From contig JAFYXV010000003.1 in NCBI GenBank assembly GCA_017557885.1, positions 70,902 to 134,901 on the forward strand: DNA of 64,000 nucleotides. Direction: 5' to 3'. Numbering within the stretch: position 1 is the first letter of the stretch; every line of letters begins with the position of its first letter. This DNA comes from a bacterium (lineage in GTDB: Bacteria; Auribacterota; UBA3054). The notes under the pieces are model-generated. The model was given only the letters and a program-made list of their open reading frames with translations. It did no database searches and was not told where the DNA came from. Positions 28,401 through 59,028 of this stretch are shown here, in pieces. The position numbers and the translations under genes were made by a program.

Positions 28401-28986
28401 GGATCATCTGCTTCATGTCTTCGTAGTCGAGGACTTCGATCTTCTGAATTTCATGAGAAGTACGGAAGCCGTCGAAGAAGTGCACGAAGGGGACTCTGCT
28501 GGTCAGAGTAGCTTTCTGGGCGATCAGAGCGAAGTCCATGACTTCCTGAACGGTGTTGGAGCAGAGCATGGCGAAACCGGTCTGGCGAACGGCCATGACG
28601 TCGGAGTGGTCGCCGAAAATGGAAAGGCCCTGGCAAGCCAAGGCGCGGGCGGTGACATGGAAGACCGTAGAGGTCAGTTCGCCGGCGATCTTGTACATGT
28701 TGGGGATCATCAGAAGAAGACCCTGGGAGGCCGTGAAGGTCGTGGTCAGGGCGCCGGAGGTCAGGGCGCCGTGGACGGCGCCGGAAGCGCCGCCTTCCGA
28801 CTGCAGCTCGGAAACAGAGGGGATCGTGCCCCAGATGTTCGGCTGATTGGCAGCGGATTTAGCGTCGGAAATTTCGCCCATCGGCGAAGAAGGCGTGATC
28901 GGGTAAATGGCGATCACTTCGTTCGTGGCGTGAGCCACATGAGCGGCAGCGGTGTTGCCGTCCATACACTCTTTTTTACGAGCCAT
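25426..28986 (-). CDS. nifJ: Pyruvate:ferredoxin (flavodoxin) oxidoreductase, single-polypeptide PFOR
   Basis: It is 1186 aa with a 2x[4Fe-4S] ferredoxin insert (CIQCGMCSLYCP...CTGCGACVEMCP). It has a TPP-binding C-terminal region (GGDGWAYDIG). Confidence 0.92.
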   Translation of the reverse strand: MARKKECMDGNTAAAHVAHATNEVIAIYPITPSSPMGEISDAKSAANQPNIWGTIPSVSELQSEGGASGAVHGALTSGALTTTFTASQGLLLMIPNMYKIAGELTSTVFHVTARALACQGLSIFGDHSDVMAVRQTGFAMLCSNTVQEVMDFALIAQKATLTSRVPFVHFFDGFRTSHEIQKIEVLDYEDMKQMIPFDLVLENRKRGLCPDRPSMRGTAQNPDVYFQGRETVNKYYQACPQLVQDAMDEFAKIVGRQYKVYEYVGHPEAENVVVAMGSGAGTMEEVVTALAKQGKKVGLVKVRLFRPFAGELFAAALPATVKRVAVLDRTKEPGSQGEPLYEDVCSAIAEAVQTGKAKFAMPTIVGGRYGLGSKEFTDAMCKGILDNLEAKEPKNHFTIGINDDVMGTSLPYDPAWQAEENTDTYCAMFYGLGSDGTVGANKNSIKIIGNYTDNYAQGYFVYDSKKAGGLTTSHLRFGKNPIASAYLITKADFIACHQYSFLEKYDMLSNLKEGGIFLVSSLYDTAEETWQHLPKKVQEQLIAKKARFFTVNAIKEAEKIGLGSRTNTILQTAFFMISKVMDPETAVAKIREYIVKSYSKKGEAVVAMNNKAVDAGLQAVSEMPKDKMVVNTEKPMKPAVPADAPEFVQKVTGVMIAGNGNDLPVSAMPVDGTFPTATTQYEKRNIAVNIPVWDPATCIQCGMCSLYCPHAAIRIKAYEPKAAEGAPETFKSTDAKTPAFAGLKFTVQIAPEDCTGCGACVEMCPAKSKTEEGKKAINMQKQEPLREAEAKNYAFFLNLPETKAELANPTTVKGSQLRRPLFEYSGACAGCGETPYVKLLSQLFGDRAMIANATGCSSIYGGNLPTTPYAKRADGRGPAWSNSLFEDNAEFGLGMRLGVDKFKGFALELIDKLLACECSAECKPLLEAIKNAPQTNQTEIEEQRARVAELKERLSKCDKQEAKQLYSLADYLVKKSVWILGGDGWAYDIGYGGLDHVIASGKNVNILVLDTEVYSNTGGQMSKATPLGAKALFAAGGKRMPKKDLGMIAMTYGNVYVASVSLGANPAQAVKAFNEAEAYDGPSLIICYAHCIAHGINMTTGLREQQKAVNSGAWLLYRYNPTLDKPLQLDSKAPTLPYSEYAFGENRFRQLKAQDPATAEALVAQGAKLMERRFKLYQKLSEIELD

Positions 28987-41268: not shown

Positions 41269-42954
41269 ATGCTGTCCGACATTGAAATCGCCCAAAGCTG
41301 TAAGATGAAAAAAATCTCCGACCTGGCCGCCGAATGGGGGATAGGGGAAGACGAAATTGAACTTTACGGCAAATACAAAGCCAAACTGAACGAGAACCTC
41401 TTCGCCAGACTGGCGAACGAGAAGGACGGCAAGCTCATCCTTGTCACGGCTATCAACCCGACTCCGGCCGGCGAAGGCAAGACCACCGTGTCGGTAGGTT
41501 TGGCGCAGGCCATGAACAGGCTTGGCAAGAAGACCATGCTTGCTTTGAGGGAACCCTCCTTGGGTCCGGTCTTCGGCGTCAAAGGCGGCGCGGCGGGCGG
41601 CGGCTACTCCCAGGTCGTTCCGATGGAGGACATCAACCTCCACTTTACCGGCGACATTCACGCCATCACCGCAGCCAACAACCTGCTCTGCGCGCTCATC
41701 GACAATCACATTCAGCAGGGGAACCAGCTGGGCATCGATCCCAGAAGGATCCTTTTCAAGCGCTGCCTCGACATGAACGACCGCAACCTTCGCCAGATCG
41801 TCATCGGCTTGGGCGGCAAACCGAACGGCACGCCCAGGGAAGACGGCTTCCAGATCACCGTCGCCAGTGAAGTCATGGCTATTTTCTGCCTGGCCAAGGA
41901 CCTCGACGACCTCAAGGAAAGACTGAACAACATCATCGTTGCCTACACCTACACCGGACAGCCGGTGGACGTCAGGGAACTCGGCTGCGGCGGCGCTCTG
42001 ACCGCCATGCTGAAAGACGCCATCAACCCCAACATGGTCCAGACGCTGGAAGGAACGCCGGCTCTTATCCACGGCGGACCTTTCGCCAACATTGCCCACG
42101 GCTGCAACAGCGTTCGAGCGACTCGTTTGGCCCTGAAACTAGGGGACTACTGCGTTACGGAAGCCGGCTTCGGATCTGACCTTGGCGCCGAGAAGTTCTT
42201 CGACATCAAGTGCCGCTACGCCGGCCTCAAACCGGAGTGCGTGGTTCTGGTAGCGACCATCAGGGCTCTGAAATACAACGGCGGCGTTCCCAAAACGGAA
42301 TTGAAAGCGGAGAACGTCGAAGCCCTGAAGAAAGGCTTAATTAACCTCGAAACGCACGTTGAGAACCTGAAGAAATTCGGGCTGCCCGTGGTGGCCGCCA
42401 TTAACCGCTTTGAATCTGATACGGACGCCGAGATCGCAGCTCTGGAAGATTGCTGCAAGAGGCTCCAGATCCCGGTCTCTCTTACGGAGATCTTTGCCAA
42501 GGGAGGCGAAGGCGGCATCGACCTGGCCCAGAAAGTGCTCGGCGAACTCGACAAGAACTGCTCCGACTTCCACTGCCTCTACGAACTCGACCTTTCCATT
42601 GAGGAAAAACTCGAAAAGATCGCCAAGGAGATCTACCGCGCCGACGGCGTCAACTTCGATGCCAAAGCCAGAAAGATGCTAAAAGAGATCAAAGAGATGC
42701 AGCTCGACCATCTGCCTGTGTGCGTAGCCAAGACGCAGTACTCCTTATCCGACGATCCGACCAAGCTGGGAAGGCCTACGAATTTCAAGCTGAACGTCAG
42801 GGAGCTCAAGATCTCCGCGGGCGCCGGCTTCATCGTCGCCCTGACAGGGGACATCATGACCATGCCGGGGCTTCCGAAAGTTCCCGCAGCCATGAACATC
42901 GACTGCTACTACGATCCGGAAAAACGCGAGAGCGTCATAACCGGCCTGTTCTGA
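41269..42954 (+). CDS. fhs: Formate--tetrahydrofolate ligase
   Basis: It has the FTHFS signature ([10 protein letters not shown]) and is 561 aa. Confidence 0.92.
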
Positions 42955-46192: not shown

Positions 46193-46270
46193 TGGGGTGA
46201 ATGAGGAGACTTGAACTCCCGGCCTTCTGGGCCACAACCAGACGCTCTAACCAACTGAGCTACATCCACC
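46193..46270 (-). tRNA. tRNA-His (anticodon GTG) with genomically encoded G-1
   Basis: The reverse complement folds as follows. An 8-nt 5' acceptor holds an extra G paired to the C73 discriminator. The anticodon loop is TTGTGGC and the 3' end is CCA. Confidence 0.8.
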
Positions 46271-46326: not shown

Positions 46327-46353
46327 GGGTCGTGGAAATCAGACCCCCTTTTT
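46327..46353 (+). other. GC-stem hairpin plus T-run between tRNA-His and the hydrogenase operon (possible terminator/leader structure)
   Basis: The sequence is GGGTC-N10-GACCC followed by CCTTTTT. Confidence 0.3.
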
Positions 46354-46412
46354 GATAAAATATCGACTAATAAATAACCTACTTTTATTTCTAAAATCCC
46401 TATGGAGGCACT

Positions 46413-46901
46413 ATGAAAAAAACGGTTCCTTTCAACGGCACCAAAGAACAGGAAGAACAGCTGGTATCCTACATCAAAGAGATGAAGGACGTGCAGGGCA
46501 ACCTTATTCCCATCATGCAGAAGGCTCAGGAGATCTACGGATATCTGCCCATCGAAGTTCAGACCATCATCGCCCGTGAAATGGACATCCCCCTGGAGAA
46601 AGTTTACGGCATCTCCACTTTCTACGCCATGTTCACCCTGGAGCCCAAAGGCAAATACCAGATCGCTGTCTGCCTCGGCACAGCCTGCTACGTCAAGGGT
46701 TCCGGCGACGTTTACGCCAAGCTTGAAAAAGTCCTGGGTCTTCAGGGCGGCGGCTGCACGCCGGACGGCAAGTTCAGTTTGGAAGCCTGCCGCTGCCTGG
46801 GCGCCTGCGGCCTTGCGCCTGTCATGATGATCAACGGCGAAGTTTACGGTCGTCTGACTCCCGACCAGATCCCCGGCATCCTTGCCAAATACAACGACTG
46901 A
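46413..46901 (+). CDS. [FeFe]-hydrogenase electron-bifurcating complex NuoE-like subunit (HndA/HydC; thioredoxin-like [2Fe-2S])
   Basis: It has a 4-Cys pattern (CLGTAC...CRCLGACGLAP) and NuoE-like length. Confidence 0.85.
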   Translation: MKKTVPFNGTKEQEEQLVSYIKEMKDVQGNLIPIMQKAQEIYGYLPIEVQTIIAREMDIPLEKVYGISTFYAMFTLEPKGKYQIAVCLGTACYVKGSGDVYAKLEKVLGLQGGGCTPDGKFSLEACRCLGACGLAPVMMINGEVYGRLTPDQIPGILAKYND

Positions 46902-46902
46902 T

Positions 46903-47262
46903 ATGAAGATCAAAGAAGTCAAAGAGCTACTTGATGCCGAGCTTCTCTGCGGCGACGAAACGGAACTTGAAAAAGACGTATTCAGCGCCTGCGGAAGCGA
47001 TATGATGAGCGACGTTTTAGCCTACGTGAAAGACCAGTCCGTTTTGCTAACAGGTCTTGTCAATCCGCAGGTCATCAGGACTGCCGAGATGATGGACATG
47101 ATCTGCCTCGTCTTCGTGCGGAGTAAAAAGCCGACGCCCGAAATGGTGGCGCTGGCGCACGAACACGGTCTCGTCGTCCTCGCTACGGAAAAACGCATGT
47201 ACGAAGCCTGCGGCATCCTCTATTCCAACGGTCTCACCAGCAAGGGAGTCAAGAAAAGATGA
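46903..47262 (+). CDS. DRTGG-domain protein
   Basis: It is a small (~119 aa) protein with the DRTGG-type fold signature (LTGLVNPQVIRTAE...LVVLATE). It is a member of the hydrogenase regulatory cassette. Confidence 0.65.
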   Translation: MKIKEVKELLDAELLCGDETELEKDVFSACGSDMMSDVLAYVKDQSVLLTGLVNPQVIRTAEMMDMICLVFVRSKKPTPEMVALAHEHGLVVLATEKRMYEACGILYSNGLTSKGVKKR

Positions 47263-47684
47263 GCGAAAGCCTCACTTTTCATTTTGACGTGAACGGCGAA
47301 GACTTCACTTCCGCCGGACAGGCCTCGGTTCGTTTCAAAAAGAACATGCGCGAACTGGGAGTGGACCCGGAGATCATCCGGCGCGCCTCCATCGCCATGT
47401 ACGAAGGCGAAATAAACATGGTCATCCACGCCCACGGCGGCGTGGCTGACGTCGAGGTGAGCGAAGACGCCATAAAGATCGTTCTGAAGGACCAGGGGCC
47501 CGGCATTCCCGACATCGCAAAAGCGATGCAGGAAGGCTACTCCACGGCTCCCGACAACATCCGCTCTTTGGGCTTCGGCGCCGGCATGGGGCTTCCCAAC
47601 ATGAAGCGCTATACCGACGAGATGCAGATAGAATCGACCGTGGGCGTGGGCACCACGGTAACAATGAAGATAAACTTGAATTGA
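47259..47684 (+). CDS. Anti-sigma-regulatory-factor-type Ser/Thr kinase (GHKL/HATPase_c, RsbW-like; HfsA-like)
   Basis: It is 141 aa with HATPase motifs (N-box region and G-boxes DQGPGIP, GFGAGMGL). It overlaps both neighbours. Confidence 0.75.
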   Translation: MSESLTFHFDVNGEDFTSAGQASVRFKKNMRELGVDPEIIRRASIAMYEGEINMVIHAHGGVADVEVSEDAIKIVLKDQGPGIPDIAKAMQEGYSTAPDNIRSLGFGAGMGLPNMKRYTDEMQIESTVGVGTTVTMKINLN

Positions 47685-47697
47685 TTTAACTTTCGGC

Positions 47698-48975
47698 ATG
47701 GAATATCAGCATTCAGTATCCCTGGACATCGAGAAGTGCAAAGGCTGCACTTCCTGCGTCCACCACTGCCCCACCGAGGCCATCAGGATCAGGGACCGCC
47801 ATGCCGTTATTGACGCGATGCGCTGCATCGACTGCGGAGAGTGCATCAGGATCTGCCCGCACCAGGCGAAGAAAGCTTTGCGGGACGATCTATTGGATCT
47901 GCAGCGCTACAAATGGAAGATCGCTCTCCCCGCCCCCAGCCTCTACGCCCAGTTCAACAATCTTGACGACGTGGATTTCGTTCTGCAGGGACTCCTTGAC
48001 ATCGGTTTCGACGACGTCTTCGAAGTGTCCAGAGGCGCGGAACTGGTGACGGCCAGAACGAGGCAGTATCTGAAAACGAGAAAGGGACCGAGGCCGGTCA
48101 TCAGCTCCGCCTGCCCCGCCATCGTTAGGCTCATAGCCTTGCGTTTTCCGAGCCTCAAGGATAATATCCTGGACCTCTTGCCGCCTATGGAAATAGCGGC
48201 CGCCATGGCCCGGGAGCAGGCCCTGAAAGATCATCCGGAATTCAAAAGGGAAGACGTTGGCGTCTGCTTCATCTCCCCCTGCCCCGCCAAAATGAGTTAC
48301 GTTAAGAACGGCCTCCCTGAGTACAAGAGTCAGGTGGACGTGGTGGTGGGCTTCAAGGACGTCTATTTCCTTCTCATCAACGAGATGAGATATTCCAGGC
48401 GCCCGAAGACGCTTTCCGAATCCGGCATGATCGGCATCGGCTGGGCCGCTTCCGGCGGCGAAGCCACCGCGCTCTTCAACGACGCGTATCTGGCTGCGGA
48501 CGGGATAGACAACTGCATCCGCGTATTGGACCGCATCGAGGGCGGCGACTTCCCGAATCTGGAATTCGTGGAGCTGAACGCCTGCCCGGGCGGCTGCGTG
48601 GGCGGCGCCATGACCATCCAGGATCCCTTCATCGCCAAGGCGAGGCTGCAGACTCTGCGGCGCTTCATGCCTGTTTCGCAGAACTTCGTGGACGAGAAGG
48701 ATCCCATCCCGGAAAGTTATTTCGTGAAAGACATGGGCTCCTATACGCCGCTGAACCGCCTTTCCGACAACATGGCGGAATCCATGCGGATGCTGAAAGA
48801 GATCCAAGCCTTGAAGGACGAGCTTCCCGGCGTGGACTGCGGAGCCTGCGGCGCGCCCAATTGCCGCGCTTTCGCGGAGGACGTGGTGAAAGGCACGGCC
48901 AGCAAATACGACTGCATCTTAACGCATCTCGACGAAGTCAAAGCCTTCCTGAGAGAAAAGGAGGAGTCGTTATGA
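47698..48975 (+). CDS. Sensory-type [FeFe]-hydrogenase-like protein (HydS/HfsB-like) lacking a PAS domain
   Basis: The N-terminus has 2x[4Fe-4S] (CKGCTSCVHHCP, CIDCGECIRICP). The H-domain motifs are degenerate: L1 SSACP, L2 SPCPAKMSY, L3 ELNACPGGCVGGA. The C-terminus has a CxxCx5Cx15C cluster. Confidence 0.75.
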   Translation: MEYQHSVSLDIEKCKGCTSCVHHCPTEAIRIRDRHAVIDAMRCIDCGECIRICPHQAKKALRDDLLDLQRYKWKIALPAPSLYAQFNNLDDVDFVLQGLLDIGFDDVFEVSRGAELVTARTRQYLKTRKGPRPVISSACPAIVRLIALRFPSLKDNILDLLPPMEIAAAMAREQALKDHPEFKREDVGVCFISPCPAKMSYVKNGLPEYKSQVDVVVGFKDVYFLLINEMRYSRRPKTLSESGMIGIGWAASGGEATALFNDAYLAADGIDNCIRVLDRIEGGDFPNLEFVELNACPGGCVGGAMTIQDPFIAKARLQTLRRFMPVSQNFVDEKDPIPESYFVKDMGSYTPLNRLSDNMAESMRMLKEIQALKDELPGVDCGACGAPNCRAFAEDVVKGTASKYDCILTHLDEVKAFLREKEESL

Positions 48976-49301
48976 CCGTAGCCGAATTCGCAAAAAAATA
49001 TTCCCTGGAAGTCCTCTCCCTGCCCGCTCCCGAAAGGGAAATCAAAGGCGGCTACATGGGGGACCTCCTCTCCTGGGTCATGGGACGCGCGAAAGCGGAC
49101 CAGGCCTGGATAACCATCATGTCCAACCAAAACATCATCGCCGTGGCGACTTTGATCGATTTCGCCTGCATTATATTGGCGGAGGATGTCAGGCTGGAGG
49201 AAAACCTGATCGAGACCGCCAAAACAAAAGGCGTGAATATTCTCACGACAAAACTGCCGGCTTTTGAAGTCGCCTGCGAGATCTGCCAAGAAATAAAATG
49301 A
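48972..49301 (+). CDS. DRTGG-domain protein (second copy)
   Basis: It is ~109 aa and paralogous to 46903-47262. Its ATG overlaps the hydS stop (ATGA). Confidence 0.65.
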   Translation: MTVAEFAKKYSLEVLSLPAPEREIKGGYMGDLLSWVMGRAKADQAWITIMSNQNIIAVATLIDFACIILAEDVRLEENLIETAKTKGVNILTTKLPAFEVACEICQEIK

Positions 49302-50032
49302 ACCGCTACTATTACGACCTGCACATCCACTCCTGCCTTTCTCCCTGTGCGGAGAACGACATGACGCCCTGCAACATTGCGGGGCTGGCGGCATTGAACG
49401 GTCTCAACATAGTGGCGCTGACCGACCACAACAGCGGCAAGAACTGCCCGGCCTTCTACAAGGCCGCCAAGAATTACGGCGTCATCCCGGTGGCAGGTAT
49501 GGAACTGACGACCGTGGAGGAAATACACCTGGTCTGCCTCTTCCCTACTCTGGAAGACGCCATGAATTTCAGCGAAGAAATAGACAAGCGCCGTGTCAGG
49601 ATAAAAAACAGGAAAGATATTTTCGGCGACCAGCTGATCATGGACGAAGAGGACAACGTATTGGGCGAAGAGGAAGATCTTTTGCCCAACGCCACCACCG
49701 TCACCCTCGACGAAGCGCCGTCCCTGGTTGAGAAACACAACGGCGTGTGCTACCCCGCGCACATCGACCGCGAAGCCAACGGCATCATCGCGATCCTAGG
49801 CGAACTGCCGAAAACCCCGGAATTCTCCTCCATAGAGATCCACGACCGCGGGAACACGGCCGCCTATGTGAAAGACCATCATCTGGAAGGCAAGACCGTC
49901 GTCGTCTCTTCGGACGCGCACATGATCGAACAGCTGAGGGAAAAGGAAAATTATTTCGATCTGGAAGACGAACCCTACAGCGGGGACCTGGTGAGAAAGT
50001 CTTTGTTCAACCGTTTGAGAGGTGTCAAATGA
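49298..50032 (+). CDS. PHP-domain phosphoesterase (HfsC-like)
   Basis: It has PHP His motifs (HIHSCLSPCAE, ALTDHNS). Confidence 0.8.
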   Translation: MNRYYYDLHIHSCLSPCAENDMTPCNIAGLAALNGLNIVALTDHNSGKNCPAFYKAAKNYGVIPVAGMELTTVEEIHLVCLFPTLEDAMNFSEEIDKRRVRIKNRKDIFGDQLIMDEEDNVLGEEEDLLPNATTVTLDEAPSLVEKHNGVCYPAHIDREANGIIAILGELPKTPEFSSIEIHDRGNTAAYVKDHHLEGKTVVVSSDAHMIEQLREKENYFDLEDEPYSGDLVRKSLFNRLRGVK

Positions 50033-50580
50033 AAGAACTTTCTTTGAACATCCTCGACATCGCCGAGAACTCCGTGAAGGCCAAGGCCCCCCTCACGCAG
50101 ATCATCCTTACCGAGACGGAAGACGTTTTGACAATAGAGATCATTGACAACGGCTGCGGCATGACCTCCGACATAGTCAAGAGAGTCATAGATCCCTTCT
50201 ACACCACCAGGACGACCAGGAAGGTCGGGCTCGGCATCCCCTTCTTTAAGATGGAGGCGGAACAGACGGGCGGAACTTTCGAGATCTCTTCCAGATCGGT
50301 TACGGAATATCCCGACGACCACGGCACAGCTATAAAAGCGACATTTCATAAAGATCACATAGATTTCATTCCTCTGGGCGACGTAGTCTCCACGATCCTT
50401 ACGCTCATCCAGGGGCATCCCGACTCGGACTTCCTTTTCAGGCACACCACCCCGAAGGGCGAAGTGTCCCTGGACACAAGGGAAATAAGAGAAGAGCTGG
50501 GCGGCGGCATATCGCTGGCGGAATACGAAGTGATCAAATGGATAGAAGAATATTTAAAAGAACAATATCAAACTAACTAA
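50029..50580 (+). CDS. GHKL/HATPase_c-domain protein (HfsD-like)
   Basis: It has HATPase motifs (IIDNGCGM, GLGIPF). The start was chosen at ATG 50029, overlapping the PHP stop. Confidence 0.7.
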   Translation: MKELSLNILDIAENSVKAKAPLTQIILTETEDVLTIEIIDNGCGMTSDIVKRVIDPFYTTRTTRKVGLGIPFFKMEAEQTGGTFEISSRSVTEYPDDHGTAIKATFHKDHIDFIPLGDVVSTILTLIQGHPDSDFLFRHTTPKGEVSLDTREIREELGGGISLAEYEVIKWIEEYLKEQYQTN

Positions 50581-50600
50581 CTTCAACTCAAGGAAAACTT

Positions 50601-50972
50601 ATGAAATCTTTGGCTGAACTTCAAGCAATCAAAGACAAGATGAAAGACAAAGTCGTCCTTAGGGAAGGTTCCGCGCAGAAACGCGTGGTGGTCGGCATGG
50701 CCACCTGCGGCATCGCGGCCGGCGCCCGCCCCGTATTGAACGCCTTTGTCGAAGGCGTCAACAAGGAAGGCCTTTCCGGCGAAGTCGCCGTCACGCAGAC
50801 CGGCTGCATCGGCATCTGCCAGTACGAGCCCGTGGTGGAGATCTTCGAAGCCGGGAAAGACAAAGTCACTTACGTCAAGATGACCGCGGAAAAAGCCCAG
50901 CGCGTCATTACTGAACACCTCAAAGGCGGAAAGGTCGTGACGGAATACACCATCGCCGCTTACGCCAAATAA
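50601..50972 (+). CDS. Thioredoxin-like [2Fe-2S] ferredoxin subunit (HndB-like)
   Basis: It is 123 aa with Cys at MATCGIAAG and TGCIGICQ. Confidence 0.75.
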   Translation: MKSLAELQAIKDKMKDKVVLREGSAQKRVVVGMATCGIAAGARPVLNAFVEGVNKEGLSGEVAVTQTGCIGICQYEPVVEIFEAGKDKVTYVKMTAEKAQRVITEHLKGGKVVTEYTIAAYAK

Positions 50973-50984
50973 GGAGGAGACTTT

Positions 50985-52787
50985 ATGATTCGTGCACAAG
51001 TATTGATCTGCGGCGGCACCGGCTGTTCCTCTTCCGGAAGCGCCAAACTGATGGAGTCTTTCGAGGCCAACCTCAAGAAATATGAACTGGACCAGGAAGT
51101 CAAGATCGTGAAGACCGGCTGCTTCGGTCTCTGCGCCCTGGGCCCCGTGGTAATCGTTTACCCTGACGGCACCTTCTATTCCCGCGTCACGGAAGGCGAC
51201 GTGGAAGAGATCGTCTCCGAGCATTTATTGAAGGGCCGCATCGTCGAACGCCTTGAATACAAGGACGTCACCGATGATCTGAAGAACAAAGCCGACGTTT
51301 CCTTGAACGACACCAAGTTCTATCGTTCCCAGATGCGCATCGCTCTGAGAAACTGCGGCGTTATCAACCCCGAGGACATCAACGAGTACATCGCCATGGA
51401 CGGCTATGCCGCCCTGGGCAAAGTGCTGACCGAGATGAAACCGGAAGACGTCATCCAGACGCTTCTCGACGCCGGCTTACGCGGCCGCGGCGGCGCCGGC
51501 TTCCCCACCGGCATGAAGTGGAAACTGGCCAGAACGCTCGTCAACGACGGCGGACCGAAGTACGTCTGCTGCAACGCTGACGAAGGCGACCCGGGCGCTT
51601 TCATGGATCGATCCGTACTGGAAGGCGACCCGCATGCCGTCCTTGAAGCCATGGCCATCGCCGGCTACGCGATCGGCTCCAACCAGGGTTTCATCTACGT
51701 CCGCGCCGAATACCCCATCGCCGTCAAGCGTCTCCAGATCGCTATCGGCCAGGCCAAAGAGCTCGGCCTTCTCGGCAAAAACATCTTCAACACGGGCTTC
51801 GATTTCGACATCGACATCCGTCTCGGCGCCGGCGCTTTCGTCTGCGGCGAAGAAACGGCTTTGATGACCTCTATCGAAGGCAACCGCGGCGAACCGAGGC
51901 CCCGTCCCCCGTTCCCGGCGGCCAAAGGCCTCTTCATGCGCCCGACCATTCTTAACAACGTCGAGACCTACGCCAATATTCCCCAGATCATTCTGAAAGG
52001 CGCCCAGTGGTTCGCTTCCATCGGAACTGAGAAATCCAAAGGCACCAAGGTCTTCGCCCTGGGCGGCAAGATCAACAACACCGGCCTTGTGGAAGTTCCC
52101 ATGGGCACGACGCTCCGCCAGATCGTGGAAGACATCGGCGGCGGCATCCCCAACGGCAAGAAGTTCAAAGCGGCCCAGACCGGCGGTCCTTCCGGCGGCT
52201 GCATCCCGGCCGAACACTTCGACGTCCAGATCGACTATGACAACCTGATGGCCATCGGCTCCATGATGGGGTCGGGCGGCCTCATCGTCATGGACGAGGA
52301 CAACTGCATGGTGGACATCGCGAAATTCTTCCTGGAATTCACGGTGGACGAATCCTGCGGCAAATGCACGCCCTGCCGTATCGGCACGCGCCGCATGCTG
52401 GAGATGCTGACGAAGATCACGGAAGGCAAAGCCACCCTGGAAGATCTCGACAAACTGGAAGCTCTCTGCTACTACATCAAGGACAACTCGCTCTGCGGCC
52501 TCGGACAAACGGCCCCCAACCCGGTGCTTTCCACCCTGCGCTACTTCCGCAAGGAATACGAAGCCCACGTTGTGGAGAAACGCTGCCCCGCCGGCGTCTG
52601 CAAAGCGCTCCTCAATTACGTCATAGACCCCCTGAAGTGCAAAGGCTGCACGCTCTGCGCCCGCAACTGCCCCGTCGGCGCCATAACTGGTACTGTCAGG
52701 AATCCCCATACTATCGACACCACGAAGTGCATCAAGTGCGGCGCTTGTATGGATAACTGCAAATTCGGCGCTATCAGCAAGAAATAA
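50985..52787 (+). CDS. NADH-binding subunit of electron-bifurcating [FeFe]-hydrogenase (NuoF-like; HndC/HydB) with N-terminal [2Fe-2S] and C-terminal 2x[4Fe-4S] domains
   Basis: It has an FMN/NADH site (GRGGAGFPTG) and [4Fe-4S] (CGKCTPCR). The C-terminal ferredoxin motifs are CKGCTLCARNCP and CIKCGACMDNC. Confidence 0.9.
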   Translation: MIRAQVLICGGTGCSSSGSAKLMESFEANLKKYELDQEVKIVKTGCFGLCALGPVVIVYPDGTFYSRVTEGDVEEIVSEHLLKGRIVERLEYKDVTDDLKNKADVSLNDTKFYRSQMRIALRNCGVINPEDINEYIAMDGYAALGKVLTEMKPEDVIQTLLDAGLRGRGGAGFPTGMKWKLARTLVNDGGPKYVCCNADEGDPGAFMDRSVLEGDPHAVLEAMAIAGYAIGSNQGFIYVRAEYPIAVKRLQIAIGQAKELGLLGKNIFNTGFDFDIDIRLGAGAFVCGEETALMTSIEGNRGEPRPRPPFPAAKGLFMRPTILNNVETYANIPQIILKGAQWFASIGTEKSKGTKVFALGGKINNTGLVEVPMGTTLRQIVEDIGGGIPNGKKFKAAQTGGPSGGCIPAEHFDVQIDYDNLMAIGSMMGSGGLIVMDEDNCMVDIAKFFLEFTVDESCGKCTPCRIGTRRMLEMLTKITEGKATLEDLDKLEALCYYIKDNSLCGLGQTAPNPVLSTLRYFRKEYEAHVVEKRCPAGVCKALLNYVIDPLKCKGCTLCARNCPVGAITGTVRNPHTIDTTKCIKCGACMDNCKFGAISKK

Positions 52788-52799
52788 GGGAGAAATATT

Positions 52800-54554
52800 A
52801 TGGAAAATGTAAATGTCAAAATAAACGGTAACGATTACAGTGTTCCCGCCGGCTCCACCATTCTGGAAGCCTGCCGCATCGCGGGGATCGAGATCCCGAC
52901 TCTCTGCTACCTGAAAGGCATCAACGAGATCGGCGCCTGCAGAATGTGCGTGGTGGAAGTCAAGAAAGCCCGCACGCTGGTGGCCGCCTGCGTTTACCCT
53001 GTGAACGAAGGCATCGAGATCACCACCAACTCTCCGCGCGTTCTGGAAGCCAGGAAGAAAACCCTCTCATTGATCCTTTCCAATCACGACCGCAAGTGCC
53101 TCTCCTGCGTCCGCAGCTCAAAGTGCGAACTGCAGACTCTGGCCCACGACATGGGCGTTGAGGACGAGGGCTACTACGACGGCGTCAGAAACGAATCCGA
53201 AGAGGATATCAGCGCGGCGCATATGATCCGCGACAACAACAAGTGCATCCTCTGCCGCCGCTGCACCGCCGTCTGCGATAAGATCCAGGCTGTGGGCGTC
53301 ATCGGCGCCAACGGCCGCGGCTTCAAGACCAGGATCACCTCACCCTTCGAAATGGGCCTCGGTGAAACGAGCTGCGTCTGCTGCGGACAGTGCATCGCCG
53401 TCTGCCCGGTGGGCGCCCTGAAAGAAAAAGACTACACGGAAGAAGTCATGAAAGCCATCGCCGATCCCGAGAAATTCGTGGTCGTGCAGACCGCCCCGGC
53501 CGTCCGCGCCGCTCTCGGCGAGGAATTCGGCTACCCGATGGGCACCCCGGTGGAAGGCAAGATGGCGGCCGCTCTGCGCCGCATGGGCTTCGACAAGGTC
53601 TTCGACACCAACTTCTCGGCCGACCTTACCATCATGGAAGAAGCCAACGAGTTCGTGGAAAGAGTGAAAAACGGCGGCAAGCTGCCTCTTATCACTTCCT
53701 GCTCCCCCGGCTGGATCAAGTACTGCGAACATTACTTCCCCGAACTGACGGAAAACCTCTCCACCTGCAAATCCCCGCAGCAGATGTTCGGCGCCACGCT
53801 GAAGACCTACTACGCGCAGAAGATGGGCATCGACCCCAAGAAGATCGTCTCCGTCTCCATCATGCCCTGCACGGCTAAGAAGTTCGAGATCGGCCGCGAC
53901 GACCAGTCCGCCGCCGGGCCGGGCATCCCGGACCTCGACTACAGCTTAACGACCCGCGAACTGGCCCGCCTCATCAAGCATCAGGGCATCAAATTCCGCG
54001 AACTGCCCGACGAGGGCTTCGATGATCCTCTGGGCGAAGGCACCGGCGCGGCCGTCATCTTCGGCGCCACCGGCGGCGTCATGGAAGCTGCTCTCCGCAC
54101 GGCGGTGGAATGGATCACCGGACAGGAACTGAAGAACGTCGAGTTCAAGGAAGTCCGCGGCACTCAGGGCATCAAGGAAGCCACCTACAACGTGGCCGGC
54201 ATGGATGTCAAGATCGCCGTGGCCAGCGGCCTTGCCAACGCCAAAGAGATCCTGACCAAGGTCAGAAACGGCGAAGCGGATTACCACTTCATCGAGATCA
54301 TGGCCTGCCCGGGCGGCTGCGTGAACGGCGGCGGTCAGCCTCAGGTCCACGCCTTCATCAGGAACACCGTGGATATCAGAGCTGAACGCGCCAAAGCGCT
54401 CTATCAGCTCGACGACAACGCCAAGATCCGCAAGTCCCATGAGAACCCCAGCATCAAGAAGATCTATGCTGAGTTCTATGAGAAACCGGGTTCCCACAAG
54501 GCTCACGAGTGCCTGCACACGACTTACGTGAAACGCGGCATGTACAAGAAGTAA
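52800..54554 (+). CDS. hydA: [FeFe]-hydrogenase catalytic subunit (HndD/HydA type) with non-canonical L1 motif
   Basis: The N-terminus has [2Fe-2S] and 4Fe-4S ferredoxin domains. The H-cluster L2 (MPCTAKKFE) and L3 (EIMACPGGCVNGGGQP) motifs are canonical. L1 reads TSCSPGW instead of TSCCPxW. Confidence 0.88.
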   Translation: MENVNVKINGNDYSVPAGSTILEACRIAGIEIPTLCYLKGINEIGACRMCVVEVKKARTLVAACVYPVNEGIEITTNSPRVLEARKKTLSLILSNHDRKCLSCVRSSKCELQTLAHDMGVEDEGYYDGVRNESEEDISAAHMIRDNNKCILCRRCTAVCDKIQAVGVIGANGRGFKTRITSPFEMGLGETSCVCCGQCIAVCPVGALKEKDYTEEVMKAIADPEKFVVVQTAPAVRAALGEEFGYPMGTPVEGKMAAALRRMGFDKVFDTNFSADLTIMEEANEFVERVKNGGKLPLITSCSPGWIKYCEHYFPELTENLSTCKSPQQMFGATLKTYYAQKMGIDPKKIVSVSIMPCTAKKFEIGRDDQSAAGPGIPDLDYSLTTRELARLIKHQGIKFRELPDEGFDDPLGEGTGAAVIFGATGGVMEAALRTAVEWITGQELKNVEFKEVRGTQGIKEATYNVAGMDVKIAVASGLANAKEILTKVRNGEADYHFIEIMACPGGCVNGGGQPQVHAFIRNTVDIRAERAKALYQLDDNAKIRKSHENPSIKKIYAEFYEKPGSHKAHECLHTTYVKRGMYKK

Positions 54555-54570
54555 GAGCAATTCTTACTAA

Positions 54571-54606
54571 AAAAGAGAAGGCGCGCCTTTTGGCGCGCCT
54601 TTTTTC
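54571..54606. terminator. Strong bidirectional rho-independent terminator (GGCGCGCC-TTTT-GGCGCGCC + T6) between hydA (+) and the beta-helix gene (-)
   Basis: It has a perfect 8-bp GC palindrome stem with A-run and T-run flanks. An additional upstream hairpin is GTAAGA-gcaa-TTCTTAC. Confidence 0.8.
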
Positions 54607-54621
54607 TTGGATCGGATAAAC

Positions 54622-56319
54622 TCAATTTTGCTGCACGACTTTTTCGGCATGCCTTATTTTCACCGGATCCTTTGTCTTTGCCGAAAAAATGTTGTGCCTC
54701 AGAAGCACGTTCCTGGCGTAGGAAACGACTACGTCCGGCTGGTCTAGTTCGGATTCGAAAATGTTGTTTTCTATTAGGATGTTGTCGTGCACCCTCGACT
54801 TCTCGTTGCCGTCGCAGTTGATGCAAATTCCGGTGCAGCCTCCGCCGTAGCCGCACCTGACGAAACGGTTTCCTCTTATTACGATGTTCTCGGACCCGGG
54901 GCCCTCGCCCCAGCCTTTCTCCACGCCGATATGGATGGCGTAAAGAGTCGTCTCCATGATAGTGCAGTTCTCTATGAGGACGTTCCTGGTCTTAATGAGA
55001 ATGCCCCTGGCGCGGTGCGACATGATCGTGCAGCCGCGCATCCTGAGGGATGGCATCCTGGAAGCGTTGATGCAGGCGTATTTTTCGAGATGATTGGGAA
55101 GCGGAGTGTCGAAAGTCACCTTGCTCTTAAGACCCTTGACGTCCTTTTCCACTCTCACGACTTTCATGGTGGTCAAAACATTCATGGTCTCGTAATCTAC
55201 GATCTCCATGATGTCGCCGGCTTCCGGAGCGTCGAGGACCAGGGCGTGCGTCATGGCCTTGACTTTCAGGATGGCGCTGCTGTCGTCCCCTTCCACCGGC
55301 AGCATGGTGTAATAGAAATTGTGAAGGTTGGTGGCGTCGTCGCCCTGGTTCGCGAACATGCAGTTCTCGAAATCGATGAGGCCGGAGCAGTTCGTGAAGT
55401 GGGTGGCGTCCGTATTGGTAGAGAGATTTTTCCCCGGCAGAGGAACGACTCTCAGGCCCTGCATGAAGATGTTTTTTGTCTTGTTGCCGACGATGCCCAT
55501 GCCGGGCTGTGAGAAGATCGTGACGTCCTTCAAGGTGATGTCCTCGCACTCGTTCATAAGGATGGCCGGGCGGAAGTGCAAAGAGTGGTTGAAGATCACG
55601 ATGAAGCCCTTGTATTTTTCTGGCAGCGAACTGTGCACGCGGAAGGTTCCGTCGGACAAAACTTCGTTGTCCCGCTGGAAGTAGTCCTGGTTCGGTTCCA
55701 ATCTCTCCCTCACGGGATCCCAGTAGGAGATCCTGGAGAGAGATGCGCCTTCAGTCAAAGGAGTGTCAGCGTCCAGTTTCACGTCGTAGTAGTCTTTTTC
55801 GACTTTTGTGATGACGCCCTGGGTGAAAGGCAGTCTTTTGTAGGAAATATTCAGGCCTTCTATGCAGACGTTCTTCGAGCCTTCCAAGGTCACGGGCTCC
55901 ATGAAGCCTTCGCAGAGGATCGTCACGCCTTTGGCGGTCACTTTCACATTCTTAAGGTTGCGCATGTCCAGCCCGGTGACGTACGGGAAATAAAACTGGA
56001 AGATCGAGTTTTCGTCCTGGCTCTTGTCCTTCAAAGACATGACGGCGTCGCGGAGCTTAATGGCTTCCGGATCGCTTATGAGATACACGCCGGGATCTAT
56101 AATTAGTTCGCAGTTCCCTTTCGCCCTGCAGGCGTCGAAGGCCGCCTTGAAGGCGTCTTTGGCGTTCGCGCTGCCGTCCGGTCTGGCGCCGTAATCGCTG
56201 AATTTTATTTGTGCAAGAGGCATATTTTTTCCTTTTGATTTAAGGTTGGTTTTCGCAAACATGTTGGATGAGCAGCCCAGGGCGAGCAGGACCACGGAAA
56301 GCCATAATATTTTTTTCAT
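54622..56319 (-). CDS. Secreted lipoprotein with right-handed parallel beta-helix (pectin-lyase-fold / GH28-like) repeats
   Basis: It has a lipobox (LLALGCSS). Repeated hydrophobic-N/G-containing ~22-aa segments match PbH1 repeats. The start was chosen at MKKILWL. Confidence 0.65.
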   Translation of the reverse strand: MKKILWLSVVLLALGCSSNMFAKTNLKSKGKNMPLAQIKFSDYGARPDGSANAKDAFKAAFDACRAKGNCELIIDPGVYLISDPEAIKLRDAVMSLKDKSQDENSIFQFYFPYVTGLDMRNLKNVKVTAKGVTILCEGFMEPVTLEGSKNVCIEGLNISYKRLPFTQGVITKVEKDYYDVKLDADTPLTEGASLSRISYWDPVRERLEPNQDYFQRDNEVLSDGTFRVHSSLPEKYKGFIVIFNHSLHFRPAILMNECEDITLKDVTIFSQPGMGIVGNKTKNIFMQGLRVVPLPGKNLSTNTDATHFTNCSGLIDFENCMFANQGDDATNLHNFYYTMLPVEGDDSSAILKVKAMTHALVLDAPEAGDIMEIVDYETMNVLTTMKVVRVEKDVKGLKSKVTFDTPLPNHLEKYACINASRMPSLRMRGCTIMSHRARGILIKTRNVLIENCTIMETTLYAIHIGVEKGWGEGPGSENIVIRGNRFVRCGYGGGCTGICINCDGNEKSRVHDNILIENNIFESELDQPDVVVSYARNVLLRHNIFSAKTKDPVKIRHAEKVVQQN

Positions 56320-56426
56320 CACGATTTTGAAAACAGGGTTGATTATCAATTGTATTCCTATTATAACAAAGGGAGCAGCCTGTTCGCCATGTCAAATTAA
56401 AACAGAGTAATGATATAATTAAGGAT

Positions 56427-56966
56427 ATGACAGACAGCTTATCAACGCTTGATTTTTGGGCAGCCTATCCAGGTCTCTTTGACAAGGCCGCCAGGGTCCA
56501 GAAGGAATGCTTCCCCTACTCTCCCGAGGAAAAGGGCTCGCTTTTTTACGCCCTGGAAGTCTGCGGGGAGGTCGGCGAATTGCTGAACGTCTGCAAAAAG
56601 ATCATAAGGACAAGGGATCCTGAAAAAGAAGGCCGCCTTAAAATCAACGCCTTCCCGGAGGAAGCCGCCGACTGCGTCATCGCCTTCACCATGCTTGCCC
56701 AGTCCCGGGGCCTTGAGCCTTGCCGCCCCTGCGATCCGCCGGTCCGGGAAAAAGAAGCCGTCCATCCGCTTCTCATCCGTCTGGCGAAAAAAGCCGCAGG
56801 ACTCTACGCCTCGGCCTGGGATGAAACCGTAAAAAACGAGGACATATCCTCGGCAATAGATATCATCATCACGCTCTCTTTGGAAATGGACTGCGACCTT
56901 AAGGGAGCCGTTAACGAAAAACTTGACAAGATAGCCGTACGGGCGCTGGAAAAACACTATGATTAA
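56427..56966 (+). CDS. MazG-like nucleoside triphosphate pyrophosphohydrolase-fold protein
   Basis: It has an EVGEL-type motif and a 4-helix all-alpha NTP-PPase pattern. It is 179 aa. Confidence 0.55.
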   Translation: MTDSLSTLDFWAAYPGLFDKAARVQKECFPYSPEEKGSLFYALEVCGEVGELLNVCKKIIRTRDPEKEGRLKINAFPEEAADCVIAFTMLAQSRGLEPCRPCDPPVREKEAVHPLLIRLAKKAAGLYASAWDETVKNEDISSAIDIIITLSLEMDCDLKGAVNEKLDKIAVRALEKHYD

Positions 56967-59028
56967 AAGATCTCTTCTGCTTTTGGCTTTTCTTTCCTCC
57001 CTTTTCGCCTTCTCCTTGGAAACTCTTCCCAGGCAGCCGGAACGGGACAGCTTTCTGGAAGCTTATCAGCTGGCGCTCAGAATATACGGCGTCAACGCCT
57101 CCTACGAGGAGCTGGCCTGCCTGAACGGATTGCCCTTCACGCCGCTCAGAAAAAGCGACGCCATCTGCGGACGCAGCGCCGACCTCCCCTATTCCTGCGA
57201 ATACAATGTTCAGCGGCTCAATAATTTCTACCGCCTCAGGAACGAGGAAAGACTATTTTCCGGCAAAGACCAGAACTCCGCGACCAAAAGGACAGAGTAC
57301 CGCAAGCTCATAGCTGATTCCCAGAAGGAGGGCGTCTCGGCCATCCAGTACGCCAAGTTTCCCGGACAGCTGATCCCCTGCTGGCATTTTGTGGAGCCCG
57401 GCACCGGTCTGACTCTCAGAATAACCTTTCAGGGGAGAACTTACAACTACGCCGGCGTCCCGGAAAAAGTCTGGCTCCTGAAGAGATCCACCCGCCCGGC
57501 TTCCGAAGAGACCCCCCAGATCTTCATCTGGGAAAACATCGGCAAACTGATCAACGGGACCACCAGCGTGCCCTTCCTGTCCTGCGGCGTCAACATGCTC
57601 AGGGAAATGGCCGACAGTTCCTATACCGTCCCCTGGTGTCCGGAATGCCAGTCGCCTTTCAACAACTGCATTTACAAACATCTTTTGCGCTGGCAGTATG
57701 ACGCGTCCCAGGCGGTGAAACTTTTCCCCTGGATGTATCAGCTTGCCACGAACGAAGAGGAAAAGGCTCTGCTTTCCCACGCGGAGCACGAATACCGCTC
57801 TTATCTCGAAATGTTCGCTCCCCTGCTTTGCGACACGAGCTGGGAACGCCTCCAGAACGATCCCGCCCGCCAGAGCCTCCTGGGCGAAAAAGTCCGGAGG
57901 CTGACGGTTCCGCTCATGAGCTGCGCCGAGTGCTTCTTCTCTTTGGCTAACAAAAGGAATTCTCTCAGCCAGGAATATTTCTCCCCCACCAAACGCACCC
58001 AGCAGGTCTCCGACAAGCTGGCCAACACCATGGTTGAGATGAACGTTGATTCGCGCTACGAAGGTTCTTTGGCCTGCTCCCTTATAATGGCCGCCCAACT
58101 GTCCGGATGCGAGCGTCCCTCCTTCGTGGTGCGCAGCATCGCCGGGCTTCCGGCAAGATTGGCCCTCAGGACCAACGACTGGCATTTCTGCCGGGAGATA
58201 AACGAAGGCTCCGATCTGAGCGCCGCGCTGGCGGAAGCCGCCGGCTTCAATCTCCGCTATGTGACCAGCCAGGTCAGCGATCCGGAAGCTGCGGCGGCGG
58301 ACAACATCGTGAAGCGCGTTTATGACGCCGCGGTCAGGAAGATCATCGAGAACATCTCGTCTAAACGCAAGGCCGTGGTGGGTTCCAACCTGAACCGTTC
58401 CGGCGCCTGGGGCGTCATAGCGGGATACACCGACAACGGTTTTGTCTGGCGCGGCCGCACCGCTTCAGACGTGAAGCCTCGCCTCTCTGAGTTCACCATC
58501 CTCCCGGCCAACATTATTCTTATCGACAAGGCTGTCGCCAAGCCTTCCTTTGAGGATGACGTTTCCCTGGCGCTCAGCCGCTGGATAAAATTCATCAAGG
58601 GCTCCTCCAGCCAGGGCGTCCTGACCGGACTTCAGCTTTGGGATTTCTGGATGAACAGCGTATCGCTCTGGTGCCTGGAAACGACTTATCCTTCTCCGGC
58701 CATGGCCGGCGCCAACCGCAGCCTCTGGAACGCCTTCATCGACAGCCGCAGCGACGCCCTGCTCTTCGTGAACCATCTTATCAAAGCCGTGCCCTCCTGC
58801 TCGATACCCATGACGGAAGTAAAGGACATAATGGAAAGGGAGCAAACGATAATGCGCAGCGCTCTCAACAACGGCTACGTCCTCGGTCATGACGGCTCCC
58901 GCTACATGCCTCCGGATTACCGGCTGGAACTGCTAGCAAGACAACTGGACGCCATGCGTCAGGTCAGGGAATTGGAAAAGCAGCTCCTGCCTCACCTGGA
59001 GATGGCTCAGCAGAACCTGCGCCTCTGA
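56959..59028 (+). CDS. Hypothetical secreted Cys-rich protein (689 aa)
   Basis: It has a signal peptide (MIKRSLLLLAFLSSLFAFS) and overlaps the MazG-like stop by 8 nt. It contains many Cys residues and no recognisable catalytic motif. Confidence 0.55.
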   Translation: MIKRSLLLLAFLSSLFAFSLETLPRQPERDSFLEAYQLALRIYGVNASYEELACLNGLPFTPLRKSDAICGRSADLPYSCEYNVQRLNNFYRLRNEERLFSGKDQNSATKRTEYRKLIADSQKEGVSAIQYAKFPGQLIPCWHFVEPGTGLTLRITFQGRTYNYAGVPEKVWLLKRSTRPASEETPQIFIWENIGKLINGTTSVPFLSCGVNMLREMADSSYTVPWCPECQSPFNNCIYKHLLRWQYDASQAVKLFPWMYQLATNEEEKALLSHAEHEYRSYLEMFAPLLCDTSWERLQNDPARQSLLGEKVRRLTVPLMSCAECFFSLANKRNSLSQEYFSPTKRTQQVSDKLANTMVEMNVDSRYEGSLACSLIMAAQLSGCERPSFVVRSIAGLPARLALRTNDWHFCREINEGSDLSAALAEAAGFNLRYVTSQVSDPEAAAADNIVKRVYDAAVRKIIENISSKRKAVVGSNLNRSGAWGVIAGYTDNGFVWRGRTASDVKPRLSEFTILPANIILIDKAVAKPSFEDDVSLALSRWIKFIKGSSSQGVLTGLQLWDFWMNSVSLWCLETTYPSPAMAGANRSLWNAFIDSRSDALLFVNHLIKAVPSCSIPMTEVKDIMEREQTIMRSALNNGYVLGHDGSRYMPPDYRLELLARQLDAMRQVRELEKQLLPHLEMAQQNLRL

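Follow-up and report, generated by a model that had tools for sequence, protein, structure and literature searches.

A Group D (M2e) [FeFe]-hydrogenase cassette within an electron-bifurcating hydrogenase operon of a diderm rumen bacterium: a probable ordinary copy of a widespread module

Here, we analyzed a stretch of 64,000 nucleotides (positions 70,902 to 134,901, forward strand, of contig JAFYXV010000003.1, assembly GCA_017557885.1; 'the window' refers to this whole stretch), in which ten genes at positions 46413-54554 encode the subunits of a bifurcating [FeFe] hydrogenase and, among them, a six-gene cassette with a second, putatively sensory [FeFe] hydrogenase. On the basis of our results, the locus is probably (with a probability of roughly 0.8) an ordinary copy of a widespread module, which consists of a HydABC(D)/Hnd operon and a canonical Group D cassette, and nothing that we observed contradicts the identity assignment of the ten genes. 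The locus adds no new system; members of its hydrogenase class have been purified and characterized by spectroscopy before. The local novelties are only the host, a diderm rumen bacterium that probably received the module by transfer, and a gene order starting with the NuoE-like gene, which is common but rarely described. What the comparison with other genomes adds is that the putative sensor is always accompanied by the same five partners and by no transcription factor, that the unit crosses phyla intact, that one 'histidine kinase' of these loci is a MutL-like ATPase and that the DRTGG proteins carry an invariant Asp/Ser motif.

The list of open reading frames (ORFs) and the profile searches agreed on ten ORFs in this region, all on the plus strand and referred to below as g1 to g10. 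A preliminary description of the window, prepared from the letters alone, had assigned a family to each of these co-directional genes, and Pfam/NCBIfam searches confirmed every one of them. Homologs of the putative sensor (g4) form at least 8000 protein clusters, and many of the matches at 64-72% identity belong to named Clostridia or Ruminococcus. A scan of species-representative genomes confirmed at least 286 loci, and the ten window proteins were mapped onto the best 80 of these to compare gene order. The order NuoE-DRTGG-SpoIIAB-like-M2e-DRTGG-PHP-GHKL-HndB-NuoF-HydA, on one strand, was present in essentially all of the best 80 loci that were long enough; the only locus among the 80 with NuoE after PHP was L068. 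The carriers included Acutalibacteraceae, Oscillospiraceae, Ruminococcus, Lachnospiraceae, Christensenella and 14 metagenome-assembled genomes (MAGs) of Coriobacteriaceae/Atopobiaceae, and thus two named phyla. The view that the duplicated DRTGG genes and the insertion into the structural operon are unusual could therefore not be maintained. When all ORFs of the 80 loci were clustered, no flanking family, sigma factor or DNA-binding gene was conserved, and the shared ORFs were the ten genes and their antisense shadow ORFs. In two of the Coriobacteriales MAGs (L060 and L061), a second and divergent NuoE/NuoF-like gene set directly precedes the module; for L061, the second match of this set hit the HndB query and not NuoF.

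The association itself was tabulated in 2012, when an M2e hydrogenase was listed five genes upstream of the A1 TR(M3) hydrogenase, with kinase-like genes in between, in Caldanaerobacter subterraneus subsp. tengcongensis, Thermoanaerobacter pseudethanolicus, Caldicellulosiruptor, Clostridium thermocellum and C. phytofermentans (PMC3561251). The five-gene spacing can be followed in the locus tags TTE0887/0892-0894, Athe_1292/1297-1299, Csac_1857/1862-1864, Cphy_3798/3803-3805 and Teth39_1463/1456-1458 (PMC3561251). In C. thermocellum, the published tags (Cthe_0335 for M2e, Cthe_0338 for NuoE, Cthe_0339 for a 'histidine kinase', followed by Cthe_0340-0342; PMC3561251, PMC3990059) imply that NuoE follows PHP, as in L068. 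Land et al. likewise placed TamHydS upstream of a bifurcating hydrogenase and beside a histidine-kinase-like ATPase (PMC8163306). These Group D loci (TamHydS, TTE0887, Cthe_0335, Athe_1292, Csac_1857, Cphy_3798 and Teth39_1463) share with ours the hydrogenase architecture, the diagnostic substitutions, the GHKL 'kinase' genes and the adjacent bifurcating HydABC, and the gene content of our cassette equals that of L068, the fetched locus with the C. thermocellum-type order. They differ in that the reference loci are found in Firmicutes, to which the host of our locus does not belong, and in that NuoE stands first in our locus and in most gut Oscillospirales and Coriobacteriia, so that the cassette lies between NuoE and HndB. 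In both gene orders (L068 and the C. thermocellum tags), the GHKL gene g7 adjoins the structural genes.

The putative sensor (g4; 47698..48975; 425 amino acids (aa)) contains two N-terminal 4Fe-4S motifs (two Fer4 matches, residues 8-57), an Fe_hyd_lg_C domain (residues 75-304; 1e-30) and a C-terminal FeS domain (PF04060; 3.5e-13) with the motif CGACGAPNC-x16-C, that is, Cx2Cx4Cx16C. Alignment to 8a6t_A, in which the L1 motif is TSCCP, gave SSACP for g4, with CpI C299 replaced by Ala and C300, a ligand, retained. The L2 motif reads SPCPAK (versus MPCxGK; M353 replaced by Ser, C355 and K358 kept), and the L3 motif is NACPGGC (versus MACPGGC; M497 replaced by Asn, C499 and C503 kept). All four H-cluster-ligating Cys are thus present and the proton-transfer Cys299 is absent, and these residues are conserved in 80 orthologs. 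No PAS family matched g4 at E <= 0.01, its 425 aa being fully covered by other domains, and the chain ends 17 residues past the last Cys of the Cx16C motif, so that the PAS domain of Group C is missing. According to the published definition, M2e or Group D hydrogenases, exemplified by TamHydS of Thermoanaerobacter mathranii, have two N-terminal [4Fe-4S] motifs, the Cx2Cx4Cx16C motif, neither C299 nor PAS, a well-conserved replacement of M353 by Ser or Thr and a poorly conserved M497 (PMC8163306). In addition, the glutamates of the SGGE and FVE(L)NAC motifs of g4 match E252 and E289 in the alternative proton pathway of TamHydS, a motif-level correspondence taken from mutagenic primer sequences (PMC10407848). 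Because its motifs agree with this definition (C299 lost, M353 replaced by Ser, Cx2Cx4Cx16C present, PAS absent), g4 is, by motifs and domain architecture, a Group D (M2e) enzyme and not one of Group C/Hfs, where the preliminary description had placed it; the missing PAS domain, taken there as a peculiarity, is part of what defines Group D.

Group C (M2f) enzymes, such as TmHydS, Ruminococcus albus HydS and Thermoanaerobacterium HfsB with the PP2C-type HfsC, do resemble g4 in their N-terminal F-clusters, the loss of the proton-transfer Cys, the Cx2Cx4Cx16C cluster, the genomic link to other hydrogenases and the proposed sensory role. However, they have a PAS domain and a serine phosphatase/kinase partner, whereas g4 has DRTGG, PHP and GHKL partners and no PAS, and M353 is Gly in Group C and Ser in g4. 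As for Group D itself, TamHydS is catalytically competent and reversible, and its high H2 affinity, slow turnover, stabilised reduced state and extra C-terminal cluster were argued to suit a sensor (PMC8163306). The H2-responsive role suggested before for this locus, as a candidate, is in line with the working hypothesis of an H2-sensing regulatory role for Group D hydrogenases (PMC8163306), which are still termed 'functionally undefined' or 'putatively sensory' (PMC11216029, PMC10407848).

The remaining part of the module is formed by four structural genes. The NuoE-like [2Fe-2S] subunit HydC/HndA (g1; 46413..46901; 162 aa; PF01257, 1.8e-50), the NuoF-like flavin mononucleotide (FMN)/NADH subunit HydB/HndC (g9; 50985..52787; 600 aa), to which Pfam adds N- and C-terminal Fe-S domains, and the catalytic M3-type [FeFe] hydrogenase HydA/HndD (g10; 52800..54554; 584 aa) have as top PDB matches chains C, B and A of a single entry, 7q4v (HydC, 1.5e-54; HydB, 2.6e-290; HydA1, 5.1e-222). 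The next-best matches include 8a6t ('electron bifurcating hydrogenase') and 7p5h, and g10 scored 910 bits against NF040763 (NADH-dependent [FeFe] hydrogenase, group A6; cutoff 765). An M3-type HydA, a NuoF-like HydB with N-terminal 2Fe-2S domain, FMN/NADH site and C-terminal 2x[4Fe-4S], and a NuoE-like HydC are thus encoded together, and by these similarities g1, g8, g9 and g10 are a HydABC(D)/Hnd-type NADH- and ferredoxin-linked electron-bifurcating hydrogenase, as had been recognized before. Besides the solved HydABC complexes (7q4v and 8a6t, and 7p5h of T. maritima), with the products of g1, g9 and g10 being close homologs of HydC, HydB and HydA1 of 7q4v, relatives are the tetrameric HydABCD of C. 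subterraneus subsp. tengcongensis and HndABCD of Desulfovibrio fructosovorans. The order NuoE...HndB-NuoF-HydA corresponds to that of hndABCD, from which our locus differs by six extra genes between hndA and hndB.

Two features of these subunits deserve mention. The HndB/HydD-like thioredoxin-like ferredoxin subunit (g8; 50601..50972; 123 aa; PF01257, 4.6e-5, below the Pfam cutoff) has no counterpart chain in 7q4v, and the solved complexes in general lack an HndB-like chain; the similarity that it does show, to the 2Fe-2S domain at the N terminus of HoxF/HydB-type subunits (HoxF, 1e-17), is expected of an HndB/HydD-type fourth subunit. It has three Cys only (C36, C69 and C73), a pattern invariant in 69 orthologs, and the first Cys of the Cx4C...Cx3C thioredoxin-like [2Fe-2S] motif, which is kept in the homologous N-terminal domain of g9, is a conserved Gly in g8. 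Its cluster may therefore have a non-Cys fourth ligand, or there may be no cluster. In g10, residues 299-305 read TSCSPGW versus the textbook L1 motif TSCCPxW, which puts a Ser at the position of CpI C300. The same Ser occurs in 53 of 53 g10 orthologs and in the closest solved homolog, 7q4v_A, and thus reflects conserved variation in this HydA clade rather than an error.

Profile searches also placed the inserted genes in the DRTGG, GHKL-ATPase, PHP and [FeFe]-hydrogenase families, as had been described. By its fold, the second HATPase gene (g7) does not encode a kinase-type domain. The g3 product, a SpoIIAB/RsbW-like GHKL ATPase, putatively of the Ser-kinase/anti-sigma type (47259..47684; 141 aa; HATPase_c_2, 3.3e-11), matched TIGR01925 (SpoIIAB) at 4e-17 and 62 bits, far under the equivalog cutoff of 135 and also far under the cutoff for RsbW, and matched the SpoIIAB structure 1til at 1.3e-9 with the N (E-x-x-x-N-x-x-x-H), G1 (D-x-G-x-G-I) and G2 boxes aligned; the three boxes are invariant in 80 orthologs. 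The g7 product (50029..50580; 183 aa; HATPase_c, 5e-13) is a stand-alone GHKL ATPase whose fold is closest to MutL/GyrB, with the motifs ENSxxA and DNGCGM. It is annotated in databases as 'sensor histidine kinase', an identity that its fold and motifs rule out. Neither g3 nor g7 matched a HisKA domain and no response regulator is encoded in the locus, so that the cassette does not have the composition of a two-component system. The PHP-family metal-dependent phosphoesterase (g6; 49298..50032; 244 aa; PF02811, 2.9e-9) carries HxH, DH, E..H, PAH.DR and SD.H motifs that are conserved in at least 97% of 76 orthologs. Its closest characterised families (pAp phosphatase, RNase AM, the TrlF N-terminal domain and EndoQ) are nucleotide or nucleic-acid phosphoesterases.

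The two DRTGG proteins, g2 (46903..47262; 119 aa; DRTGG, 2.7e-7) and g5 (48972..49301; 109 aa; PF07085, 5.7e-6), show no BLASTP similarity to each other, and their family profiles align over the full length (hhalign probability 98%, E 2.2e-13, 19% identity). A recent duplication is ruled out, since they are related only at the profile level and both occur in every locus; judged from these profiles, they are ancient paralogs. Both have a true DRTGG fold, which excludes them as STAS analogs by fold. The DRTGG-1 family (g2) comprises about 1358 representative clusters, and across 52 divergent representatives the sole invariant residues are D33 and S36, within the motif SD(L/M)MSDVL (SDxMSDVL in g2); the Asp/Ser pair is retained at the aligned positions of DRTGG-2 (GDLLSWV). 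In one representative, a public protein of 275 aa (P0441), DRTGG-1 is fused in frame, through a natural-looking linker, to a SpoIIAB-like HATPase_c_2 domain, which possibly provides a Rosetta-stone link between g2 and g3. Ten longer DRTGG-1 matches were scanned with Pfam, and P0441 was the only module-relevant fusion among them; the combinations of DRTGG-1 with SPOR, ArgJ or peptidase M3 look like chimeric or truncated gene calls and were discarded.

The cassette had been proposed to be a partner-switching circuit. It shares with SpoIIAB-SpoIIAA-SpoIIE and RsbW-RsbV-RsbU a small SpoIIAB-like GHKL protein, candidate antagonists and a phosphoesterase. However, those modules have STAS and PP2C proteins and a cognate sigma factor, whereas our locus has the DRTGG fold, a PHP protein and no sigma factor in the conserved neighbourhood. 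With neither STAS protein, PP2C phosphatase nor conserved sigma factor, the proposal does not hold in its literal form, and the cassette is like partner switching by analogy only. The HoxBC-HoxJ-HoxA system of Cupriavidus offers the same concept of a slow, high-affinity hydrogenase that acts as the H2 sensor for an energy-converting one (compared in PMC8163306), but its [NiFe] site is unrelated and its PAS histidine kinase and response regulator are both absent here.

How a cassette of this kind would work can be outlined from the conserved features of its proteins, and we tentatively propose a possible scheme that could well prove wrong. In this scheme, the M2e hydrogenase (HydS) would bind H2 at an H-cluster with a crippled canonical proton pathway, where turnover would be slow and reduced states stabilised, and would report the H2 or redox state through its C-terminal [4Fe-4S] domain. 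This signal would bias an ATP-dependent switch formed by the SpoIIAB-like g3 and the two DRTGG proteins, in which Ser36 of the D-x-x-S-D motif of g2 is the candidate phospho-acceptor and the PHP enzyme g6 the putative resetting phosphoesterase. Hints in this direction are the invariant ATP boxes of g3, the conserved metal motifs of g6, the invariant D33/S36 pair, the fusion of DRTGG-1 to a SpoIIAB-like domain and the MutL/GyrB-like fold of g7. The six cassette genes and the four structural ones are, moreover, inherited together and transferred together, and this block includes no transcription factor. The output would most likely stay inside the module and act on the co-encoded hydrogenase complex, because the module, which is self-contained and portable across phyla, is accompanied by neither a DNA-binding protein nor a sigma factor; g7 could be the mediator, since it is always adjacent to the structural genes. 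A dedicated transcription factor as output appears less likely. It is doubtful that the cassette goes as far as being a self-contained, horizontally mobile H2-responsive switch of an undescribed kind, with DRTGG in place of STAS, PHP in place of PP2C, a MutL-like GHKL effector and post-translational gating of the hydrogenase instead of transcriptional control. If true, this would hold for the whole Group D family and not for this window alone.

Several points weigh against the reading of the locus as a Group D cassette that controls its hydrogenase in this way. DRTGG domains are not known to be phospho-acceptors, and the families nearest to g6 act on nucleotides or nucleic acids and are not protein phosphatases. 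An error of sequencing or gene calling could have produced the P0441 protein, which is a single fusion. The SpoIIAB-like g3 could instead hold a sigma factor encoded elsewhere, and co-transcription of the ten genes is itself only plausible. The class assignment of g4 is one of motif-level agreement and of comparison with TamHydS peptides deduced from primers. A literature search returned no functional study of the cassette proteins, and phosphorylation, protein contact or H2 dependence of any of them was not found in the literature searched.

Three other explanations have to be weighed against a Group D cassette acting within the module. In one, g3 would sequester a sigma factor encoded elsewhere, and H2-loaded HydS, the DRTGG proteins and the PHP protein would control its release and thereby transcription of the hyd operon or of a fermentation regulon. 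Such an anti-sigma system would explain why g3 is most similar to the anti-sigma F factor SpoIIAB. Moreover, the expression of hydrogenase genes in R. albus and Thermoanaerobacterium is believed to be under the control of Group C sensors (summarised in PMC11837493), and the NADH-dependent hydrogenase activity of C. subterraneus subsp. tengcongensis responds to the partial pressure of H2 (cited in PMC3561251). However, neither a sigma factor nor a DNA-binding gene is conserved beside the module in the 80 loci, the module has neither a STAS antagonist nor a PP2C phosphatase, and the presence of the same ten genes in Clostridia, Coriobacteriia and a diderm host is hard to square with a lineage-specific sigma factor. 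We consider this explanation unlikely. The cassette might also have no signaling function and form an ATP-dependent system for assembly, repair or activation, in which g7 and g3 would be clamps or chaperones, the PHP protein a nucleotide phosphoesterase and the M2e enzyme an auxiliary low-rate hydrogenase for redox poising. The fold of g7, of the MutL/GyrB/Hsp90 type and not that of a kinase catalytic ATP-binding domain, its place beside the structural genes in both known gene orders, the nucleotide substrates of the families nearest to the PHP protein and the catalytic competence and reversibility of TamHydS (PMC8163306) would all suit such a role. On the other hand, PDB searches with g2, g3, g6 and g7 returned no chain of 7q4v, an entry that also has no g8-like chain, and the high H2 affinity, slow turnover and stabilised reduced state of TamHydS resemble those of regulatory hydrogenases, which makes an assembly role quite improbable in our view. 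Maturation of the [FeFe] H-cluster is also not known to need more than HydE, HydF and HydG.

The last explanation is the one from which the analysis started, namely a novel Group C/Hfs variant with duplicated DRTGG proteins, a lost PAS domain and an operon insertion, in a lineage of the Planctomycetes-Verrucomicrobia-Chlamydiae (PVC) type. The genes and domains are indeed as described and the host is an unusual diderm, but the motifs and architecture of g4 are those of Group D, the same architecture and order occur in hundreds of genomes (at least 286 loci, with the order compared in the best 80), the two DRTGG genes are ancient paralogs of 19% identity present in every locus, and comparison of the host ProS gives no support for PVC membership; there is very little chance that this explanation is correct. 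With the Group D reading preferred, the question that matters is a family-wide one, namely how signaling proceeds from a hydrogenase without PAS through its DRTGG, PHP and GHKL partners, and it has now become somewhat more testable. The points added by the comparison also yield hypotheses on how fermenters sense H2 partial pressure, which bears on H2 and methane flux in the rumen and on the engineering of biofuel yield.

With regard to the host, which comes from the ruminant gut, genes for a TolC-family channel and an RND adaptor in the window indicate a diderm organism. Outside its own lineage, its ProS has no match above 59% identity, and none above 52% in any named phylum; the named matches scatter over Zixibacteria, Auribacter, Acidobacteria, Firestonebacteria and Elusimicrobia. 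A PVC affiliation is neither confirmed nor excluded by ProS and the other window genes, which carry no lineage signature. In contrast with the distant ProS, the operon proteins share 60-84% identity with their Oscillospirales counterparts, and neighbour-joining trees place both the window lineage and the Coriobacteriia copies within clostridial diversity. The difference between the two suggests that the whole ten-gene module was acquired by horizontal transfer between co-resident gut anaerobes. The 14 Coriobacteriaceae/Atopobiaceae (Actinomycetota) MAG contigs that carry the module (L051-L055, L057, L058, L060-L063, L067, L069 and L079; contigs of at most 184 kb; M2e identity 62-64%) are nested among Firmicutes copies, which points to transfer of the whole module between phyla.

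We also compared the ten genes with those of the closest relative, a MAG from yak omasum (L002). The ratio of nonsynonymous to synonymous divergence (dN/dS) was 0.04-0.13 for all ten genes, which indicates purifying selection. Synonymous divergence (dS) was 0.19-0.38 for g1, g8, g9 and g10, whereas it was 0.66-1.65 for g2-g7, that is, three to five times higher in the cassette. Flanking housekeeping genes had dS values of 1.4-1.7 and the highly expressed FTHFS gene had 0.52. A mosaic operon produced by recombination was rejected as the primary cause of the contrast, given that the flanks are cassette-like and that FTHFS is also low. In view of these flanking and FTHFS values, strong codon bias in the abundant enzymes versus cassette genes of low expression is the likely explanation.

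The layout of the locus is compact. The gaps at the nine junctions from g1 to g10 are 1, -4, 13, -4, -4, -4, 20, 12 and 12 nt, and public gene calls on contigs with an identical g7 protein have the same product lengths for g2-g10 (119, 141, 425, 109, 244, 183, 123, 600 and 584 aa). Upstream, a tRNA-His gene (46193-46269, minus strand) is divergently oriented, and the 143-bp gap between it and g1, a region kept in the close relative L001, holds a promoter-like site found by consensus scan (46333..46361, plus strand; TGGAAA, a 17-nt spacer and the extended -10 element TG-n-TAAAAT). Promoter-like matches across the region were as frequent as expected by chance, so that this site is weak evidence. 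At the 3' end, just past the stop codon of HydA, there is a GC-rich palindromic hairpin of 10 bp (54578..54601; AAGGCGCGCC-TTTT-GGCGCGCCTT; scan match on the minus strand, sequence read directly) with a T run behind it and with flanking A and T runs. This hairpin is likely a bidirectional terminator that separates HydA from a beta-helix protein gene (54622-56349), which is convergent and bounds the operon on this side. Within the operon, a scan of the region gave no terminator-like matches above chance. The ten genes plausibly form a single transcription unit, given that the largest gap is 20 nt and that a promoter-like site precedes them, a hairpin follows them and no excess of terminators interrupts them. 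The preliminary description had further stated that most of them overlap by 4 nt, which applies to four of the nine junctions (ATGA), all within the cassette. No riboswitch or leader RNA was found, the Rfam matches being tRNAs only, and no Rex operator site beyond chance was present upstream of the operon. tRNA genes are common integration points; however, FolC and RmlD, which lie upstream, keep their synteny in L002, and any insertion at tRNA-His would thus be older than that split.

Among the other genes of the window, two fit a fermentation that supplies reduced ferredoxin to a bifurcating hydrogenase: pyruvate:ferredoxin oxidoreductase (25426-28986, minus strand; 1805 bits) and formate-tetrahydrofolate ligase (41269-42954, plus strand). 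The proteins encoded at 3031-4911 and 56959-59028 had no Pfam matches. A protein of 1611 aa (4919-9754, plus strand) combines a reprolysin-like (M12B) metallopeptidase domain with a PKD domain. Finally, a tandem pair of overlapping paralogous genes (20598-23015 and 23012-25363, minus strand) encodes proteins of about 800 aa, each with bacterial Ig-like (Big_1), Na/Pi-cotransporter and PhoU domains, an unusual fusion architecture.

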